Positions 24,194 through 56,895 of a stretch of 64,000 nucleotides of DNA are shown piece by piece (position 1 is the stretch's first letter; each line of letters starts with the position of its first letter). The stretch comes from a virus (Duplodnaviria; Caudoviricetes), in IMG/VR virus record IMGVR_UViG_3300028381_000200, positions 1 through 64,000 of that record. One strand, 5' to 3'. A model generated the notes under the pieces. The model ran no database searches, was not told the DNA's origin, and worked only from the letters and a program-made list of their open reading frames with translations. The position numbers and the translations under genes are program-made.

Positions 24194-24496
24194 TCACGAC
24201 AGTTCGCCCAGGACGCTGTCATCCTGCTCGTAGCCGACGACCGGCGTTTGGCCGTTCGTCGCTTTGATTTGCTGGTCCAACGTCCTGATTTCTCGCGCGA
24301 CCGTCGACACCATTTTGTCGAGCACGCGCACGTCGTAAGTCGGCTGACGCGTGGTTTCTTTGTCACCGCCCACGCCGAACCGGCGCGTGACCGTCGCGCT
24401 GTTCGCGTCGCGCAATTCGACCAGTTCCGCGTGTCGCTGGCGGAGAGTCTTCATCCAAACCAGTGCTTCGTTGACCGTGATTGTTCTCCCCGCCAT
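24194..24496 (-). CDS. DIP1984-like half-size coiled-coil protein
   Basis: TVNEAL...PTYDV...IRTLDQQIKATN resembles one DIP1984 repeat. Confidence 0.65.
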   Translation of the reverse strand: MAGRTITVNEALVWMKTLRQRHAELVELRDANSATVTRRFGVGGDKETTRQPTYDVRVLDKMVSTVAREIRTLDQQIKATNGQTPVVGYEQDDSVLGELS

Positions 24497-24501
24497 CGCT
24501 C

Positions 24502-24590
24502 ACCTCGCTTCGCTTGCTTTGCCACGCCTCGCCTAGCCGCACCGGGCCGCGCTTTGCCGTGCAATCCTCGCCTTACCTCGCCTGCTTTGA
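24502..24590 (-). ncRNA. satellite GGY-NN guide-like unit
   Basis: AGCAGGC-(NN-GGY)n-AGCAAGC; UUCG hairpin at 24594-24615 on its 5' side. Confidence 0.8.
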
Positions 24591-25235: not shown

Positions 25236-25312
25236 TGGACCACCGGGCGGGAGTCGAACCCGCAATCTCCGGGGTAGAAGCCCAGCGCATCATCCTATAA
25301 TGCTTCCGGTGG
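25236..25312 (-). tRNA. tRNA-Arg (UCU), atypical
   Basis: Full cloverleaf CCACCGG/CCGGTGG, anticodon loop CTTCTAC, TTCGACT T-loop, encoded CCA; A8/U14 and U73. Confidence 0.8.
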
Positions 25313-25317
25313 TCGAT

Positions 25318-25392
25318 ACCTTGCTTGCTTTGCTTCGCCTTGCCACGCTCTACCAGGCCATACTCCGCCGACACAGCCTCACCTGGCCTGCT
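25318..25392 (-). ncRNA. satellite GGY-NN guide-like unit
   Basis: Starts at TAG stop (TAGCAGGC), ends just before tRNA 5' end. Confidence 0.75.
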
Positions 25393-26161
25393 ACGCTTTG
25401 CCGTTGCTGCCTTTGAACACGAAGTTGAACAACTTGTCGCCGACCGTCGGCAGCTTGTCGCTCTCCAGCGATACCTCGTTTGCCCTCATTCGAGCCGCCT
25501 TGATGGCCCTACGCAGCGACTCGGCACGCTCCAACATGTCAGCTTTCTGCACGATGGTCAACGCGCTGCTCCACTCTTGTGCCGTCACCGTGCCCACCGG
25601 CACGTCTTCGGAGATGACCTGCGCCTGGCCAGGGTGCTCCGGTGTCGGCTGCAACAGCACCAGCACACGCTGTGCTTTCTTCGTGCGCTGTGTCCGCACC
25701 TCGCGCGCCTTGTAGACGCCAGCTCCAGCGTCGGGGTCCGGCACGTAACTCTTGGCCGAGTCCAGCGTCGGCGCAGCCGTCACCAGTTCTTGAATTTCAG
25801 CACTGCGTTTTTCAAGTTCGAGCAGCGCCGTCGCCGGGACGTTGGTCAACAGCACCGTGCCGTCATCCAGGACGACGTCGGCCCGTGCCTTGGTATTGGC
25901 CTCCGCCACCTGGTAACTCACGTCCAGCGCTTTGCGCCAGACGTCGGCGATCCAATCCAACTCTTTGGGCACCGTGCTTTCCAGCTCCGAGTGCTGCTCG
26001 ATCACCACCGGCATGTTCTCTTCCAGCGGCTGGAAGGCGAGAATTTTCTTTTCGAACAGGTGTCGCTTTTTTTCGAACGTGGCCCGCAGGTCGGTCCGCG
26101 TCGCCTGCGCTTGACCCTTCAGCTGACCCTCGACCGCCAACAACTCGTGCAACTTCGGCAT
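25391..26161 (-). CDS. DUF7873-like conserved phage protein
   Basis: KLHELLAVE, ARADV, VPATALLELEK, RTKK, EHPGQ, DVPVG, ARMRAN. Confidence 0.75.
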   Translation of the reverse strand: MPKLHELLAVEGQLKGQAQATRTDLRATFEKKRHLFEKKILAFQPLEENMPVVIEQHSELESTVPKELDWIADVWRKALDVSYQVAEANTKARADVVLDDGTVLLTNVPATALLELEKRSAEIQELVTAAPTLDSAKSYVPDPDAGAGVYKAREVRTQRTKKAQRVLVLLQPTPEHPGQAQVISEDVPVGTVTAQEWSSALTIVQKADMLERAESLRRAIKAARMRANEVSLESDKLPTVGDKLFNFVFKGSNGKA

Positions 26162-29855: not shown

Positions 29856-29920
29856 ACCTCGCTCAGCCTTGCTCAGCCCGTCCCTACTTCGCCACACCTC
29901 GCCTTACCTCGCCTGCTTTG
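29856..29920 (-). ncRNA. satellite GGY-NN guide-like unit
   Basis: CAAAGCAGGC then 11 NN slots; begins about 10 nt after upstream stop. Confidence 0.8.
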
Positions 29921-29927
29921 AATGCGG

Positions 29928-30962
29928 TCATTTCCACCTGCGCTCGACTTCGCGTTCGAGCAACGGCAGAAATTGTTCCGCGTGTGTCGGGGCGATGGTG
30001 TCCCAATTCAGTTTGCGCAACCGCGCGCAGCTTTTCGGGAACGTCGGGCGACCGGCCGCTTTGAATTTCCGGTGCGCCACGTTGGCCAGCGCGATGAGAG
30101 GTAGCACCCGCACTCGGCCTGCGCCCGCTTGCATACCGAACACCGCTGCCACCAGCTCCACGAACGCTTCCGCCCAGGCAATCATGCCCGGCACGGCCAG
30201 GGCCGCGTCGGTGCGCGGCAGCGTCTGCGTGACCATGTCGCCACCCGGCTTCGTGCCCGTGGTGACCACCAGCACACTACGCAGCAACGACGGGCCGTCC
30301 AGTGGCAGCTTGCTGTTGTTCAGCAAGTCGACCATGCCCCGCACGGGGGATTTCTCGCTGGTGGCAATCCGTCGAATGAATTGCCCGGACAGCCCCGGCC
30401 ATCCCTTGAGCACCGCCTTCGGTGTCAACTTGCGCCGACTATTGAGCGCGACGAAGAGGTTCACTTCGGCGTCCAGGCTGTCGACCTTGTGAATGAGTGC
30501 CTTCAGCGGCACCTTCACTTCGTCATGCGCCCAGAAGCGCTGCTGCCCGTCGACAATCCAGCGCGATCCGTCGCGCCGTTCGGCGATATCAATTGGGTCG
30601 GGAATGGACCCGCCCGACTTCAGCACGTGAATGAGGCTGTTGACCTCGTCGCCGATTCGGACACGCTGATAACGTTCGTCCACGTTCAGCGTTTTGAACT
30701 CCGACGGTTGGATAATAGTGACCTCGACCGCGTCGGTCACGCCGGTCACCAGCACGGGTTTGACGAGTCGCCGGGCCAGGTGCGTCGCCTGAATGGCGTC
30801 GCTGTCGGCCAGCTTGCGTTTGCCGAGAAGCGACGCAGCCGTCACCTTCGTCATGTCCTTTTTCTTCTTGGCCAGGGGGACGTCGTGCTGGCGCAAGTCG
30901 TGGCTCGAAGGCGTTGAAGTCATATTCGCCATAGCCACTTCACCGAGGGTTGTCATACTCAT
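29928..30962 (-). CDS. ParB/Srx-like domain protein
   Basis: VDERYQR, IVDGQQR, EVNLFVALN. Confidence 0.75.
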   Translation of the reverse strand: MSMTTLGEVAMANMTSTPSSHDLRQHDVPLAKKKKDMTKVTAASLLGKRKLADSDAIQATHLARRLVKPVLVTGVTDAVEVTIIQPSEFKTLNVDERYQRVRIGDEVNSLIHVLKSGGSIPDPIDIAERRDGSRWIVDGQQRFWAHDEVKVPLKALIHKVDSLDAEVNLFVALNSRRKLTPKAVLKGWPGLSGQFIRRIATSEKSPVRGMVDLLNNSKLPLDGPSLLRSVLVVTTGTKPGGDMVTQTLPRTDAALAVPGMIAWAEAFVELVAAVFGMQAGAGRVRVLPLIALANVAHRKFKAAGRPTFPKSCARLRKLNWDTIAPTHAEQFLPLLEREVERRWK

Positions 30963-31002: not shown

Positions 31003-31401
31003 TCATTCTATCACAGTTGACGCTTTCCTCGCCTTCCGTGATCCGGGTTTGGCTTTCTGCTGCTTCACCGTGGTGACGGTTTTTTCATCGCCCCACCACT
31101 TCATAGGGTCGTGCCCCGACGAGTCCAGCAGCAGCATGGCGGTCCAGGCTAGGGCCACCCCGTGCATGCGCGGCCGAATCAACTCGAACGGCGACACGTC
31201 GAGCAACTGCGCCGACGTCTTTATGTGCTTGCGGGCCAGGTAGTCGCCCAACCGTCGGGCCGCAACGAAGTTGACGACGCCGCGTGCAGCCAGGTCGGGT
31301 TTGGTCATCGGGACCCCGTCCAGGACCACCAACGTCGTGGTATACAACTCCTCCATAAACGTTTTGCCGGTGACGCGCTTGCCGTCTTCACGGTCGATCA
31401 T
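31003..31401 (-). CDS. hypothetical protein
   Basis: GGAGCGAG RBS. Confidence 0.65.
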   Translation of the reverse strand: MIDREDGKRVTGKTFMEELYTTTLVVLDGVPMTKPDLAARGVVNFVAARRLGDYLARKHIKTSAQLLDVSPFELIRPRMHGVALAWTAMLLLDSSGHDPMKWWGDEKTVTTVKQQKAKPGSRKARKASTVIE

Positions 31402-31529
31402 TTCTCGCTCCGTTTCTTGGCGGGATAGCGGCGGGCTTTATCCCGCTCGCTATGCCGCAGCCGTTGTTCCCGCTTCAGCCGTGCTTGCTCCAGTCGCCGC
31501 TGCTTCTCTGGTCGCCGGACGGCCATGGC

Positions 31530-32240
31530 TCAAACCGCCCGGTAGTGCCCAGGCGCAGGCCGCATGGCCTTACCTCGCGCCACCAACCGGTTCAACGCGG
31601 CACGCGCATTCGACATCGAATTGGCCCCCCGACGCGGCACGTAACCCTTCTCGTCAAGCGCCGCCTTCACCTGGGAGGCGGTAATCGTGCCGTTCTCGTG
31701 CGGCAGCATAGGCTCGACCATTTCCATGAGGCCGACGTCCGCCGTGCCCCGCGCCTTGGGGAAGGTCATGGCCCGCTGGTCGCCCGCGCCGTTGGGTTTG
31801 GCCAACGCGTAGGCCCCGTCGCGGCCTCCCTTGCCATGCCGCACGGCGCGACCCTGCTTCCGAAGCCGGGCCAACGTGCTGGTCAGTTGGTTCCAGAATT
31901 TCTCCGGCAGCTTCCGCCGCAATTCCCTGGGGGTTTGCGGCACCAAGGTCAGCGCCGAGTAAATGACCTCGGTCACCGGTCCCAGGGGCGACACCTTGCC
32001 GCCACGGGCCTTGTGCCCCGCCCACCGCGCTGCGAGCGCCTTCCGAATGGCCGCTTCCTTGGCGGGGGTCATCTTCCTCCGCCAGGGCTCCGACTTGTGA
32101 TCGGCCACGTCCGGCTCGTCACCGAACAGCCCTTCGAGGGTGGCCAGCTCCACCCGCAGCTCCTTGATTCGTTTCTTGACGCCCAGCCTGGCAGCCGCCA
32201 GGACGAACGCCTGCACCTTTCGTGGAATACCTTTCATCAC
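31530..32240 (-). CDS. basic DNA-binding protein, likely two winged-helix domains
   Basis: KALAARW, LARLRKQG, LNRLVARG...GHY; own promoter. Confidence 0.7.
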   Translation of the reverse strand: MMKGIPRKVQAFVLAAARLGVKKRIKELRVELATLEGLFGDEPDVADHKSEPWRRKMTPAKEAAIRKALAARWAGHKARGGKVSPLGPVTEVIYSALTLVPQTPRELRRKLPEKFWNQLTSTLARLRKQGRAVRHGKGGRDGAYALAKPNGAGDQRAMTFPKARGTADVGLMEMVEPMLPHENGTITASQVKAALDEKGYVPRRGANSMSNARAALNRLVARGKAMRPAPGHYRAV

Positions 32241-32266
32241 TCGCTCCTTTCAACAGGGAAAACCGC

Positions 32267-32294
32267 AGTATACACCGAACTAATAATTATGCAA
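32267..32294 (-). promoter_or_regulatory. promoter with operator
   Basis: TTGCAT-16-TATACT; motif 32279-32288. Confidence 0.6.
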
Positions 32295-32295
32295 T

Positions 32296-32578
32296 GCCTA
32301 ACTTGCTTTGCCTGGCCCCACTCAACCGGGCCTCGCTCAACCAAACGTAGCCACGCCTGCTGTGCCGTGCCTTACCGTGCCGAACCGGACCTGGCCTTGC
32401 CTGTCTCAGCCTGCTTTGCCTCGCCGTCCTTGCTCCGCCTTACCAGGCTAACCAAACCTGGCCGCGCCTCGCCTGCTGTGCCTGACCTCGCCGTGCCGTC
32501 CTTACCCGACCGCACGTAGCCATGCCTGCTTTGCTCTGCCTGGCCAGTCTCGGCCAAGCCTCCCTAGCGCCGCCTGCC
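32296..32578 (-). repeat. GGY-NN array C (5 units)
   Basis: GCCTGC delimiters at 32355, 32409, 32471, 32524, 32572. Confidence 0.9.
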
Positions 32579-33124
32579 TTACATGACGGCTTGGGCGAGC
32601 GCCATCTTGCACGCCGACAAACTTTCGAGCGCAACGTGCAACGCGGCTGACCGGTCGGCCAGGTCCGGATTGGCGTCCATACGCCGCTTCAAGTGCTCGA
32701 TAAACCGCTGAAGCCCGTCCCGCTTGCCCATGGCTTCCGCGATGGCCGACGCCAACTCGTCGGCGTCCAACGTGTCGAGCGTCTTGTAGCTCTCCGCCTT
32801 CGGCACGTGAATAAAGACCGGCCGCGACGTAGTGACCGTCTCGCCTGCTGCCGCGTGGGTCACCTCGATGACTTCCACCGACCGCATCAGGTTCATGGCC
32901 TGGTTCAGCCGGTGCTGGTGCGCCGCGATTGAATCGCGCCACTCGAACGCGCCGTGCAACGGAGATGATGGTGGCGTTGCGGCCGTCACCACCACCGCCG
33001 GAGTCAGCGATCCGACTTCGTTGTGCAGGTCGGCGAGCGCCTCACCGGCCTGTTGTGCCGTCACACCTCGAATGCGTGATCCCTTCCGAAATGTGTAAGC
33101 TGAATGCTTCTGCCGCTTCGCCAT
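32579..33124 (-). CDS. partner protein of the RAMP/array locus
   Basis: LTPAVVV..A...SSPLHGAFEWRD..AA..HRL; AAAGGAGCGAGTG RBS. Confidence 0.8.
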   Translation of the reverse strand: MAKRQKHSAYTFRKGSRIRGVTAQQAGEALADLHNEVGSLTPAVVVTAATPPSSPLHGAFEWRDSIAAHQHRLNQAMNLMRSVEVIEVTHAAAGETVTTSRPVFIHVPKAESYKTLDTLDADELASAIAEAMGKRDGLQRFIEHLKRRMDANPDLADRSAALHVALESLSACKMALAQAVM

Positions 33125-33137
33125 CACTCGCTCCTTT

Positions 33138-33540
33138 CCTTGCTTGCTGTGCTCAGCCTCCCTCGCTCTGCCAAACCGTGCTCCGCCAAGCCTCGCTTGC
33201 CGTGCCGTGCCGAACCGTGCGGACCGAACCACACCTAACCGTGCCGGACCGGGCTAAGCCTGCTGTGCTCTGACTCACCGCGCCTCGCCATACCGCGCCG
33301 CGCCCAGCCGTGCTCAACGACCCTCGCCTGCTCTGCTCTACCCAACCACACCGCACTTCGCAGACCTAACCTAGCCTGCTTTGCTTTGACTGGCCACGCC
33401 GCGCCGTGCCTTGACTGACCTGGCCCGGCTTGCCTTGCTCGGCCAGGCGCGACCAAGCCGCGCCTAGCTCCGCTCGCTACGCCTGCTCGGCCTAGCCCCA
33501 CCGCGCCTCGCAAACCTCGCCTTACCGCGCCTGCTTTGCT
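33138..33540 (-). repeat. GGY-NN array B (about 7 units)
   Basis: GCCTGC delimiters at 33258, 33326, 33374, 33481, 33529 plus GCTTGC variants. Confidence 0.9.
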
Positions 33541-33552
33541 ATGATGGATGAC

Positions 33553-34275
33553 TTACGCCGCTTTCGAGACGACCGTCACCGCTGAACCGACGCTGAACAT
33601 GCCCCACTCTTGGCCAGCTGATTCTTTCGAATCTGGCCGTCCCGCACCGACGCCAACTTGCAATCCGATTCGAGAAAACAAGTTGACGACGTCTTCCTCG
33701 GTGAATTGGTCGGCGTCAAAACGCACTTTGACGTTGGCTCGCCACTCGCGGAACCGTGCCCGTGCTCGCAGGTCGGCCACGCCGGTCGCGTTGCGCACCG
33801 CTGCGATGAAGTTGTCCGGCTCACCTTCGATTCGCACCAGGCTGGTGCCGTCGGTTGAAATGCCGTCGGCCACGATGAACACCGACAGCTTGGCGAACGT
33901 CATTTTGAAGCCGACCAACCGGCACGCCGAAATCGCCGCTTGCCGGAAGGCTGACGCGTTGATGCCATACCAGCCCTCGGTCGCCACCCAGAGACTGTCC
34001 TTGAAACCAGCGTCAAAATCTTTGGCGCTGCGCTGTTTCTTCCCACGCGTGGTGCTGCCCGCCAGCTGCCCCTTCATCATTTCGGCCTGGGACGCCGGAC
34101 CGAATCGGTTGCTGACGTATTGCGTCAACGACTCGATTGGGATGATGATTTCCTTCATGTTGGGCGGGGTGATTTGCACCCGCGTCCCAGTGGTCTTCGC
34201 CGCCGGTTTACTTTCCGGCGTCGGCTCGCCCATGATCGGGTCGGCCTCTTCTGCTGCTGCCTTCGTTTTCATCAC
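33553..34275 (-). CDS. Cas7/RAMP-like RNA-binding protein
   Basis: YGINASAFRQA helix start, RNATGVADLRAR hairpin, C-terminal Gly-rich loop GLQVGVGAGRP..SAG.EWGMF; flanked by arrays. Confidence 0.7.
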   Translation of the reverse strand: MMKTKAAAEEADPIMGEPTPESKPAAKTTGTRVQITPPNMKEIIIPIESLTQYVSNRFGPASQAEMMKGQLAGSTTRGKKQRSAKDFDAGFKDSLWVATEGWYGINASAFRQAAISACRLVGFKMTFAKLSVFIVADGISTDGTSLVRIEGEPDNFIAAVRNATGVADLRARARFREWRANVKVRFDADQFTEEDVVNLFSRIGLQVGVGAGRPDSKESAGQEWGMFSVGSAVTVVSKAA

Positions 34276-34294
34276 TCGCTCCTTTTTGAAATGA

Positions 34295-35321
34295 ACCTTG
34301 CCTAGCTAACCTCGCCTCGCCAAACGTAGCCCTGCCCAGCCTGCTCTACCACGCCGTGCCTTGCCTAGCCGCACCACGCCATGCTTCGCTTTGCCTCGCC
34401 TGCTGTGCCACGCCTTGCCCCGCCGAACGTAGCCAAGCCATCCTTGCTCAGCCAAGCCAAGCCATCCACGCCTGCCGGGCCTTACTCGACCAGGCCGCAC
34501 CTAGCCGTCCTTGCCGTGACCCGCCACGCTCCGCCTTGCCTGCTGCACTTTGCCGCACCAGACCGCGCTTGGCTCATCTCCGCCAGACCCCGCCTGACCG
34601 GCTGTGCTCAGCCCCACCACACCAAGCCAGGCACTGCCCAACCTAACCTTGCCTGCTTCGCTTTGACTTGCCAGACCGCACCGCGCTTTGCCACCCTAAC
34701 TCCGCCTGCTGTGCTCAACCGCGCCGCGCCACACCGGGCCTCACTTAACCTTGCCTGCTCCACCGCGCCCGGCCGTGCCTTACCAGGCCGCGCTTTGCCC
34801 CACCTCGCCATGCCTGCTGTGCTCCGCCATACCAGGCCGGGCCGTGCCTAACTACACCCCGCCTGCTTGGCCTGACCTTGCCTCACCGTGCCGTCCATGC
34901 TCCGCCAAACCACGCCTCACCTCGCCTGCTTTGCCTGGCTCGACCGCGCCATACCCCACCGCGCCAAACCCTCCGCCCGACCTTGCCTGCTTTGCTTTGA
35001 CTTGCCGCCCCAGCCCGGCCGCGCCGCGCCATCCCGCGCCTTGCCTGCTTTGCCACGACGTGCCTAACCCCGACGTGCCACGCCCACCTAACCCCGCCGT
35101 GCTGCGCCCCGCCGTGCCTTGCTGGCTGCGCCTGGCCTTGCCTACCATTCCCTCCGCACCGAACCTTGCCTGCGTTGCTGCGCCGCTCCAGGCCGTGCCT
35201 TACTCCGCCACGCTCCGCCTGCTGTGCCCCACTCTGCCCGGCCTAGCCTTGCTTCGCCTGCTTTGCTTTGCCACACCGCACCTTACCGCACCAGACTTCA
35301 CTTAGCCTTGCTTCGCCTGCT
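34295..35321 (-). repeat. GGY-NN array A (about 1 kb, at least 16 units)
   Basis: 16 GCCTGC delimiters from 34339 to 35315; many spacings 39/49/59 (5n+4). Confidence 0.92.
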
Positions 35322-35324
35322 ACC

Positions 35325-35365
35325 GAAAAAAACGGGGCGGGCTGGTATACCCAGCTGCGCCCCGT
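35325..35365 (-). terminator. intrinsic terminator after DUF932
   Basis: ACGGGGCG...CGCCCCG followed by T7. Confidence 0.75.
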
Positions 35366-35370
35366 CATCC

Positions 35371-36465
35371 TTACGCCGCTTCCGCAATCTTCGACCAGTC
35401 CTTCGGAGCCAGCGCCATCACTTCGCCGCCCGCCCGTTCGAGCGCCGTCGTGATTTCGTAATCGGCTTCGAGCACGTTGGCCGTCGCCGTGATTGCACTC
35501 GACAGCCCCCACTGACTCAGGTCGCCACCCGCCGCCAGCGCCTTGAGAATCCCGTTGCTCGCGCGCTCCGGGAGGCTCAGCACTTCAATCGTGGCTTCGA
35601 CCACCGCAGGCAGGTTGTCGCTTTGAATCACCTGACCCTGCGCTTGGCGAATTTGCGTGATTGCCTTCTTGAAGGTGTCTTCGTTGAAGGCAGCCATCGT
35701 GACGTCCCGAACCTTGAGCCAAAAAGCCGCGTCGTCGGCTCGCCTGGTCTCATCCTTGAAGACCTCGTAACCCTCGTCGGCGCTATTCGCGCGCCCGACG
35801 TGGTATTTCTTCATCGCCGCCTGCGCGACAATCGCCAGGTTCGTGCAGCGCGTGGTGAACACCGAAGGTTCGACCCTCAGCGTGCCCGCGCCGACGTCGC
35901 TGTTCGAAATCACGATTGCAGCGACCAACCGGCTGTCCTTCATGATATGGTGCTCGTGCCCCGCCATCCTCATGTCGACCAACTCTGCATCGCTGAGCCC
36001 CGGCAGAATGCCCTTGATATAGAGTCGGGTTTCGGTCAGCTCGCTGGACATGACTTTCACGCCCGCCTTGAGCAACGTCGGGAGCACCGCGTTGGCCAAG
36101 TCGAAGTTGTCGAGCGCCCGAAACTTCGGGCTGAGAAACGCGCGCACCTTGCCGTCCAAGGTTCTCAGCATGCGTCTTTCATCTTTCGCCGCGTGCAACC
36201 AGGTGTTCAGGTTTTGCGCGAGCAGCTCCGGCTGTTCGGCGCGCATGCGGTCGAAATATTGCTTGGGAATCCCCAAATGTTGAGCGAACTGCCCGTGGGC
36301 GTAGTTCGTCACCGCGAAGGGGGTGTGATTGATCCCGTCGAGCACCACTTCGCCGTCCTTGACCACGGCTTCGATTTTGCCCTGGGGCGCGATGTAGTCC
36401 TGCCGGGAGTTGGCTTGCCGCTCCAGTTCGGCGGCAATGTCCTGAAGGCTGCGTCCTGCTCTCAT
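35371..36465 (-). CDS. DUF932-family phage protein
   Basis: RAFLS..FRALDN, ISNSDVGAG, CTNLAI. Confidence 0.85.
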   Translation of the reverse strand: MRAGRSLQDIAAELERQANSRQDYIAPQGKIEAVVKDGEVVLDGINHTPFAVTNYAHGQFAQHLGIPKQYFDRMRAEQPELLAQNLNTWLHAAKDERRMLRTLDGKVRAFLSPKFRALDNFDLANAVLPTLLKAGVKVMSSELTETRLYIKGILPGLSDAELVDMRMAGHEHHIMKDSRLVAAIVISNSDVGAGTLRVEPSVFTTRCTNLAIVAQAAMKKYHVGRANSADEGYEVFKDETRRADDAAFWLKVRDVTMAAFNEDTFKKAITQIRQAQGQVIQSDNLPAVVEATIEVLSLPERASNGILKALAAGGDLSQWGLSSAITATANVLEADYEITTALERAGGEVMALAPKDWSKIAEAA

Positions 36466-36541
36466 GATTCACTGGTCCTTTTCCCCTCGGTCTCCGGCGG
36501 TATGCCGGTCTCACGAGGCTTTCGAGTCATCCAACGAAGGG

Positions 36542-36571
36542 ATTGTCTCACAAACTAATAATTCGTGTCAA
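36542..36571 (-). promoter_or_regulatory. promoter with operator
   Basis: TTGACA-18-GACAAT; motif 36554-36563. Confidence 0.65.
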
Positions 36572-36574
36572 CCC

Positions 36575-36775
36575 CTATTTTTCGAGCAGGTCCAACAGGG
36601 TCCTGGGCTCATCTTTGTCGGTCCAGGCCGCAGGCAGGCCCGCCGCCTTGCGGACCCGGCGGATCATTTCGAGCCAGAGGTGGTTGTCGGCCCCGGCCTC
36701 GGCCAGGTCGGTGAGCAGCTGGGGCAACCGCTCGTCGCCCACCGCCTCGCGCAGCACCTCGGCCACCGCTTTCAT
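36575..36775 (-). CDS. hypothetical protein
   Basis: ATGA coupling, GGAGG RBS. Confidence 0.6.
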   Translation of the reverse strand: MKAVAEVLREAVGDERLPQLLTDLAEAGADNHLWLEMIRRVRKAAGLPAAWTDKDEPRTLLDLLEK

Positions 36776-37107
36776 TCGGACCTCCGGGGGATAATGGTGA
36801 CCACGTTCGAGACCTGGGGCAGCACGGCCAGGGCGTTGCTGCCCATAATCTCCAAGCCCTCCTCATTGGCGTAAACGTCGAAGCGCTCCCGGTTGATTGT
36901 AAATTCCAAGCGGGTGCCATCGGCCAGATAGGTGCTGCCGTCGTCGAGGTTCCCATCTGGGCCAGCCCGCAGATAGTTCTTAATCCGGATACTGGTCTTC
37001 ACGGTCGTGGGCGCGTCGCGCTTCAAGGTGGCGACCTGGTCTTCGAGCGCCTGGACGTAGTCCTTGAAGCGTCGGGGGAGCGCGTCGTAGCCGTCAGGTC
37101 GGGTCAT
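36772..37107 (-). CDS. hypothetical protein
   Basis: ATGA coupling. Confidence 0.65.
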   Translation of the reverse strand: MTRPDGYDALPRRFKDYVQALEDQVATLKRDAPTTVKTSIRIKNYLRAGPDGNLDDGSTYLADGTRLEFTINRERFDVYANEEGLEIMGSNALAVLPQVSNVVTIIPRRSE

Positions 37108-56800: not shown

Positions 56801-56895
56801 GTCGGGACGCCATCAAAGCAAAGCAGGCGTGGCTTGGCAAAGCTGGGTTTAGCGCGGTGTGGCTCGGCGAGGCGAAGCAGGCAACGCGTCCCGAC
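56801..56895 (+). ncRNA. satellite GGY-NN guide-like unit inside a 10-bp inverted repeat
   Basis: AGCAGGC at 56822 and 56876; GTCGGGACGC/GCGTCCCGAC flanks; antisense to tail operon. Confidence 0.8.

Follow-up and report, generated by a model that had tools for sequence, protein, structure and literature searches.

A predicted VIPR guide-RNA locus in a phage genome and the near-match of its first guide to an adjacent DUF932-like gene

Genes and repeat arrays of the locus

Analysis of a 64,000-nucleotide stretch of DNA (the window, positions 1 to 64,000 of the IMG/VR virus record IMGVR_UViG_3300028381_000200; Duplodnaviria, Caudoviricetes) revealed a locus composed of a gene for a Cas7-like RAMP protein (vipr), a partner gene, and three flanking arrays of pentanucleotide steps, with a DUF932-like gene directly upstream that is nearly matched by the first unit (U1) of the main array (Table 1). 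Judged from its sequence, the locus is a "staggered" VIPR (Viral Interference Programmable Repeat) system, a CRISPR-like RNA-guided DNA silencer, and the repeat array is its predicted guide-RNA array. The record totals 102,060 bases (75% complete) and genes near the locus matched PHROG families, as expected for carriage by a phage.

VIPR systems have been described as phage-borne loci with a minimal RAMP (Vipr; RRM core, glycine-rich loop, and thumb), accessory vap genes, and guide RNAs (vrRNAs) of 9-16 GGY/NN pentamers, and the preprint distinguishes seven types, vap1-6, and two type II exemplars, Escherichia phage SUSP1 and a Pseudomonas fulva prophage (10.64898/2026.04.26.720920). One Vipr protomer is assigned to each GGY and the NN bases pair with double-stranded DNA such that every third target base, usually the wobble base of a codon, is skipped, with binding silencing transcription (10.64898/2026.04.26.720920). 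The natural targets given are rival phages, satellites, and other VIPR loci (10.64898/2026.04.26.720920; 10.64898/2026.10.15.759431), with the bar for a natural target set at an 80% match and no self matches at that level in the authors' sets (10.64898/2026.04.26.720920).

Table 1. Features of the predicted VIPR locus and of the adjacent DUF932-like gene, with coordinates of the window.
Feature	Coordinates	Strand	Details
Sigma-70-like promoter (TTGACA, 18 nt, GACAAT with TG), upstream of the DUF932-like gene	36542..36571	-	10/12 consensus positions
DUF932-like gene, 364 aa (P0001, phrog_1362)	35371..36465	-	PHROG phrog_1362, E=6.7e-40
Near-target site, codons 119-127 (DNFDLANAV)	36085..36111	-	16/18 to guide 1 (U1); skipped base = wobble base
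Intrinsic-terminator-like hairpin with seven consecutive T, following the stop codon of the gene and preceding the array	35326..35366	-	
Main array, predicted vrRNAs	34300..35321	-	~213 pentamer steps, 191/213 RGY-NN; 14 AGCAGGC boundaries 39-174 nt apart
First predicted vrRNA unit (U1)	35258..35321	-	Boundary AGCA, nine variable pentamers (35317-35273), three handle-like pentamers
vipr, Cas7-like RAMP protein, 240 aa, glycine-rich loop GVGAGRPDSKESAGQEWG	33553..34275	-	Family profile against PDB; AlphaFold 2 (AF2) model; Foldseek
Second array, predicted vrRNAs, between vipr and the partner gene	33140..33548	-	5 AGCAGGC boundaries
Partner gene, 181 aa, phrog_15946, candidate vap accessory gene	32579..33124	-	Co-occurrence with arrays
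Third array, predicted vrRNAs	32270..32575	-	4 AGCAGGC boundaries

The main array fills a 1-kb intergenic tract that extends to the ribosome-binding site of vipr, and each of its steps consists of an RGY trinucleotide (GGC, GGT, AGC, or AGT) followed by two free bases. Arrays lie on both sides of vipr. Lag-5 autocorrelation recovered the main tract together with four smaller tracts near 24.4, 32.2-32.5, 33.1-33.4, and 56.7-56.8 kb, and scanning the complete 102-kb genome for triple-RGY density added short tracts near 25.3 and 29.9 kb and found none beyond the window. The boundary motif AGCAGGC occurs 39 times on the minus strand and four times on the plus strand, and a pattern of one boundary plus six pentamers displayed eight matches in the window compared to none in 100 shuffles.

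Cutting at xGCAGGC in 26 records gave 113 clean in-phase units of 7-17 pentamers (mode 11). By the cutting rule, the last pentamer was xGCAG in 113/113 of them, its final G being the first G of the next GGCNN. The 3' slots of these units were semi-conserved, with AG in the last (113/113), AA in the one preceding it (69/113), and AA in the one before that (39/113), while the other slots had an entropy of 3.6-3.9 bits. The arrays thus displayed the organization expected of vrRNAs, i.e., tandem pentamers with a fixed GGY-like part and two hypervariable bases that flank vipr, with A or G at position 1. A type II 3' pseudoknot tail was absent from the units, which abut directly and have only their last two to three slots semi-conserved; therefore, the locus was not filed under type II (SUSP1-like).

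The identity of the central gene was supported by several comparisons. The single Vipr-like sequence gave a weak match in PDB to 36pp_D, "SUSP1 Vipr protein" (E=0.015), and a profile built from 15 family members matched the same entry at E=2e-9 over profile positions 25-200, almost the full length. Foldseek searches with the AF2 model (pLDDT 79.7) returned Cas7 backbone subunits of type III and VII CRISPR complexes (E 1.7e-5 to 1e-3, probability ~1), with those of Cmr/Csm as the best matches. The 15-member alignment further showed a G-rich loop, GxGAGRPxSKxSxGxGWG, kept across the family. These features are those of a minimal RAMP akin to the published Vipr proteins.

Clustering of open reading frames within 3.5 kb of arrays identified two recurring protein families among 23 array-bearing records, with homologs of vipr (33553-34275) in 18/23 and of the partner gene (32579-33124) in 19/23. 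The partner protein had no match in Pfam or PDB, and its model (pLDDT 87.3) had no fold match at E<=0.001, the best being a transcriptional regulator at E 0.35. Neither vipr nor the partner gene nor the target gene had a match in NCBIfam or PADLOC; Rfam held no family for the arrays, its sole match being a tRNA; and literature searches on pentanucleotide periodicity in phages gave nothing relevant. A TRAP-like RNA-binding array, G-quadruplex/R-loop tracts, Chi-like/centromere repeats, opposite-strand rut sites, and type III antitoxin RNA repeats had been considered for the repeats and were dropped after the Vipr homolog was found. A near-identical translation-initiation region, AAAGGAGCGAGTGATG, was also observed on the minus strand at 34257-34290, 33122-33150, and 32238-32262, serving vipr, the partner gene, and an AbiEi-like gene, each of which follows an array.

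A guide unit matching the upstream DUF932-like gene

On the minus strand from 35321 to 35258, U1 reads AGCA GGCGA AGCAA GGCTA AGTGA AGTCT GGTGC in its first half and GGTAA GGTGC GGTGT GGCAA AGCAA AGCAG in its second, the last G being common to the next unit. Slots 1-9 are GA AA TA GA CT GC AA GC GT and slots 10-12 are AA AA AG. The unit is among the cleanest of the array, with RGY in 12/12 pentamers and with intact boundary and 3' slots. Its last three slots equal the handle consensus, such that the match to the gene covers all nine variable slots and no others.

The initial annotation had aligned the nine slots, read as D-N-Y-D-L-A-N-A-V, with 36085-36111 at 16/18, and re-reading of the minus strand, which pairs the slots at 35317-35273 with codon positions 1 and 2 of 36111-36085, confirmed both the match and its coordinates: the gene carries GAC AAC TTC GAC TTG GCC AAC GCG GTG (D-N-F-D-L-A-N-A-V) and the skipped base is the wobble base, in frame. 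The two mismatches were also as claimed, TA versus TT (Tyr/Phe) and CT versus TT (synonymous leucine codons, CTN versus TTG). Furthermore, the proposal that the variable bases of the pentamers are slots reading two of three gene bases is equal to the published 1-nt skip rule of VIPR, a homolog of whose Vipr protein is encoded at this locus. A gapped scan with two paired bases and one skipped base (NNx) in both strands and all frames of the window identified 36085-36111 as the sole site scoring at least 14, with the next best at 13. Skipping one base gave 16 in the own genome and 17 in relatives compared to 13-14 with skips of zero and two, and the score of 18 at a skip of three is the array matching itself. 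The full rule (NNx, coding sequence, wobble skip) was found for one guide only, U1.

The name DUF932 given to the target gene in the initial annotation stood in part. The Pfam model (PF06067) had no hmmscan match to the protein at E<=10 and no match in a six-frame search of the genome, and none of 120 listed P0001 homologs had a Pfam domain or a useful name. The ESM Atlas nevertheless placed P0001 beside DUF932 clusters, with a structure match of TM 0.90 to a cluster that is 94% PF06067 (a lead-grade comparison, as both sides are predicted models) and feature scores of 0.98 to clusters that are 49-61% PF06067; the gene is therefore labeled DUF932-like. At the site, 94 of the 120 nearest homologs (59-68% identity) carry F as third residue and 24 carry Y, residue seven varies among Q, N, S, and E, and two homologs have the complete string DNYDLANAV. 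The promoter-like site upstream of the gene is a consensus match only and was the sole such site found in 31400-36700. Folding of the RNA from 35375 to 35258 predicted a long G+C stem followed by U7 between the gene and the array.

Alleles of the target site and the weighing of explanations

The initial annotation had proposed a search of DUF932 genes for the perfect gapped pattern, holding that its reading would fail if no allele matched better and scores were at the null level; alleles matching at 17/18 and 18/18 were found, and the reading was therefore upheld. A relaxed pattern with the two mismatch positions left free, run on viral contigs, gave 44 stretches, 16 of which fell on the homologous site of P0001 homologs, with one scoring 18/18 (L057), six scoring 17/18 (L038, L042, L048, L056, L060, and L079; 35-71% identity), and nine scoring 16/18. 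The other 28 lay in unrelated open reading frames or non-coding DNA, including two chance 18/18 matches. Seven relatives from an independent protein search matched at 15-17/18 at the homologous site, and no pentamer or VIPR array was found beside the gene in any of these seven. The whole records of five of these seven each held exactly one site with at most three mismatches, at the homologous codons, compared to none for a reversed-pattern control, and no VIPR array was found in the five. The perfect pattern occurred at 41 places in bacterial contigs (one genome per species), seven of them in P0001 homologs (37-42% identity) that were all from Burkholderiales, mostly Comamonadaceae, and one of which adjoins a phage-type primase gene. 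A 21-base pattern that adds the codons xTx CCx matched eight metagenome contigs, 8/8 in homologs at the same site and at 18/18.

We consider it most likely, at a rough probability of 0.6, that U1 targets the alleles of rival elements and that the phage's own copy is partly spared. In this model, the three arrays would presumably be transcribed from the minus strand and cut into vrRNAs, each of which, by analogy with the published systems, would be coated by Vipr protomers. U1 would then direct the filament to DNA of the form GAx AAx TAx GAx CTx GCx AAx GCx GTx, which spells D-N-Y-D-L-A-N-A-V, a natural allele of a moderately conserved stretch in a DUF932-like family of phages and mobile elements. 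The phage may thereby silence the DUF932-like gene of rivals in the same host (related phages or prophages) that carry 17-18/18 alleles. The copy of the phage itself, which lies directly upstream, departs from the guide at two of the paired positions (Phe for Tyr, and TTG for a CTN leucine codon) and would be at least partly spared.

Several observations weigh against this model. Unrelated genes, mostly orthologous host genes, hold 34 of the 41 perfect bacterial matches, and unrelated genes also hold two of the three perfect matches in viral contigs. In tblastx comparisons of the perfect-allele loci with the phage genome, the DUF932-like gene was the sole robust shared gene. The target window ranked 82 of 356 in conservation, which is above average and not exceptional. 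TTG accounts for 7/35 leucine codons of the target gene and TTR for 26% elsewhere; it is therefore an ordinary codon in this phage and no proof of escape. The match also ends after slot 9, with the own copy at 17/24 over 12 slots and the best DUF932-like alleles at 18/24. The residues that follow, L-P, are near-invariant and thereby preclude pairing of slots 10-12 with any allele; should pairing of all 12 slots be required, the family would have no allele that reaches the preprint's 80% bar. Finally, the other guides found no targets: the other seven clean guides of the window scored at the null level both in relatives and in the phage genome, two guides other than U1 (20 specified bases each) had no perfect-pattern match in viral contigs, and 70 distinct guides from 26 records compared with ~1.0 Mb of loci displayed, U1 excepted, a best-mismatch distribution like that of shuffles. 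In a further comparison of 244 strict guide windows from 18 records with 25 DUF932-like genes, only U1 scored at least 16, and no other VIPR locus examined targets the family.

Together with the own match of 16/18 (89%), which exceeds the 80% bar of the preprint (10.64898/2026.04.26.720920) such that the self copy may not be spared, the ordinary TTG codon, the distant carriers, and the guides without targets make self-regulation a live alternative, albeit one we regard as unlikely. U1 would here guide Vipr to a site 355-381 nt into the open reading frame of the phage's own DUF932-like gene. In this feedback loop or timing switch, transcription starting at the upstream promoter would be damped, as would any read-through reaching the VIPR locus, with the two mismatches tuning the strength of the effect. 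The position of the site is consistent with such a role, as it lies in the directly upstream same-strand gene between the sole promoter-like site and the array, and so are the perfect 3' slots 6-9, given that protomers are reported to resolve 3' to 5' along the vrRNA in cryo-electron microscopy (10.64898/2026.04.26.720927). The strong terminator-like hairpin separating gene and array argues against it, as do the lack of self matches in the preprint's sets noted above, the existence elsewhere of better alleles that a purely self-directed guide would not need, and the occurrence of the gene without an adjoining VIPR array in 7/7 protein-search relatives. A combination of the two roles, in which U1 is a deliberately imperfect self guide that throttles or times its own operon (promoter 36571-36542) via 16/18 and fully silences the 17-18/18 alleles of rivals, appears somewhat less probable still; if true, it would be the first VIPR guide regulating its own genome, with the number of mismatches setting graded silencing.

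It is also improbable that U1 is a relic which once matched this gene family, or arose by duplication, and now acts on nothing, its similarity being historical. Units 1 and 2 do have their first 19 nt in common (AGCAGGCGAAGCAAGGCTA), many units of the array have degenerate pentamers or phase shifts, and a low-depth contig from run X6 skips 35085-35330 with U1 included, all of which would fit this reading; the clean state of U1 itself and the exact 18/18 alleles still present in nature argue against it. The least credible explanation is that a nine-slot pattern happened on 16/18 in a 64-kb GC-rich window. A score of 16 somewhere in the window was reached by 8/1500 random slot guides (~0.5%) and by 3/1000 shuffles of U1, and because the ~25 units (~250 sliding windows) make a 16/18 match somewhere not rare (~15%), the count alone is weak; the lack of a match for any other guide points the same way. 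Among guides drawn at random from the window's slot pool, 24/4000 reached 16/18 in the own 102-kb genome and 2/4000 reached 17/18 in 222 kb of sequence from related phages, where U1 scores 17/18. U1 was the only one of the window's eight clean guides to score above its shuffles (0/200), and did so in the relatives' 222 kb as well as in the phage genome itself. The match is moreover in frame and covers exactly the variable slots, and its two differences are allele-like, as, among the 1377 strings that lie two substitutions away from the own NN string, only 29 agree with at least one of 119 homologs and only nine agree with as many homologs as the guide does. The extended perfect pattern, lastly, found the same family at the same site in 8/8 metagenome matches. 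All features of the match together put chance well below 1%.

Related arrays and comparison with known systems

Searching viral contigs with the boundary-plus-pentamer pattern gave 27 stretches, 22 of which held arrays, at a GC content of 48-68%. The fixed part is AGY in the low-GC members, where the punctuation is very regular, and the fixed trinucleotide was observed to shift with genome GC from GGC-rich at 60% to AGC/AGT at 48-50% (L010 3549-4775; L024 1571-2191; L035 932-1591 and 2432-2969). At its end, the 1.15-kb array of L010 has a hairpin and then six consecutive T. Another VIPR-bearing viral contig, L033, carries at ~340-1430 a DUF932-like gene with 37% identity to P0001 and the site ENEDLAEAV, which is 16/18 to U1; none of the guides of L033 itself matches this gene. 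In the soil or rhizosphere run X6, one contig (1066 nt, depth 4.2) aligned with many differences to the array and the 3' part of the DUF932-like gene, and its skip of 246 nt, which removes units 1 and 2, hints at gains or losses of first units among relatives. No usable variant of the target site was obtained from four DNA runs, whose contigs were fragmented and of low depth.

Short stand-alone vrRNA-like tracts of one or two units were observed at 29860-29915, 25315-25405, and 24495-24590 on the minus strand and at 56812-56890 on the plus strand. They have the same AGCAGGC boundaries, lie distant from vipr, and resemble the "solo vrRNAs" described in the competition preprint (10.64898/2026.10.15.759431). 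The tract at 56.8 kb is on the strand opposite to both flanking genes and a hairpin follows the tract at 29.9 kb. The vrRNA-like unit within 25236-25405 (minus strand) stops a few bases short of a same-strand tRNA-Arg(TCT), such that tRNA processing could define its 3' end. Among the neighboring genes, all on the minus strand, the one directly downstream of the third array (31530-32240) encodes a C-terminal AbiEi_4 helix-turn-helix (Pfam E=6.4e-6). It is followed by a gene for a ParB-like/DGQHR (DpdB-like) protein (29928-30962; phrog_1033 at 4e-9, and NCBIfam DpdB at 1e-4, which is below the cut-off), and a small gene with Pfam DUF7239 (E=3.7e-10) lies upstream of the DUF932-like gene at 36772-37107.

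VIPR first appeared in print in April 2026, and few clades have known natural targets. The locus adds to the VIPR family an uncharacterized staggered-array branch, which the boundary pattern indicates to be common in viral metagenomes, with one well-supported predicted target and an unusual near-self match. It would extend the 1-nt skip rule from the type II systems in which it was tested to a phage of soil or rhizosphere and name the DUF932-like gene family as something that phages fight over. The natural series of 16/18, 17/18, and 18/18 sites could serve for measuring the mismatch tolerance of VIPR, which decides the avoidance of autoimmunity.

Compared to the published VIPR systems, the locus is likewise phage-borne and has a small RAMP akin to the SUSP1 Vipr, a second small gene, long intergenic pentamer arrays, and guide NN bases that match coding sequence as NNx with the wobble base skipped. 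The unit size also fits the 9-16 repeats given in the preprint (10.64898/2026.04.26.720920). In contrast to SUSP1 type II, the units have no 3' pseudoknot tail and abut with a 1-nt overlap (AGCA|GGC), and ~23 boundaries are present in three arrays compared to four vrRNAs in SUSP1. This overlap is shared with the "staggered vrRNA arrays" of the fig. S18 legend, according to which vrRNAs overlap by 1 nt with the end of one being the start of the next (10.64898/2026.04.26.720920). Further differences from published VIPR are the fixed part (RGY here, and AGY in low-GC relatives, versus GGY), a partner without recognizable fold match, and a guide whose best match in its own genome is a near-self site.

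In SUSP1-family phages, solo vrRNAs target the VIPR loci of relatives with a self-match lower than the rival match, and the preprint reads the lower self score as avoiding autoimmunity (10.64898/2026.10.15.759431). U1 is similar in that its gene is common to carrier and rivals and its self-match is below the rival match, and differs in that it matches a DUF932-like gene instead of vipr or a vrRNA and lies within a full VIPR locus. A more distant parallel, differing in the other VIPR features given above, is provided by the class 1 CRISPR-Cas backbone formed by Cas7 proteins (Csm3, Cmr4), which has its fold in common with the Vipr-like protein and likewise places one protomer per short RNA step.

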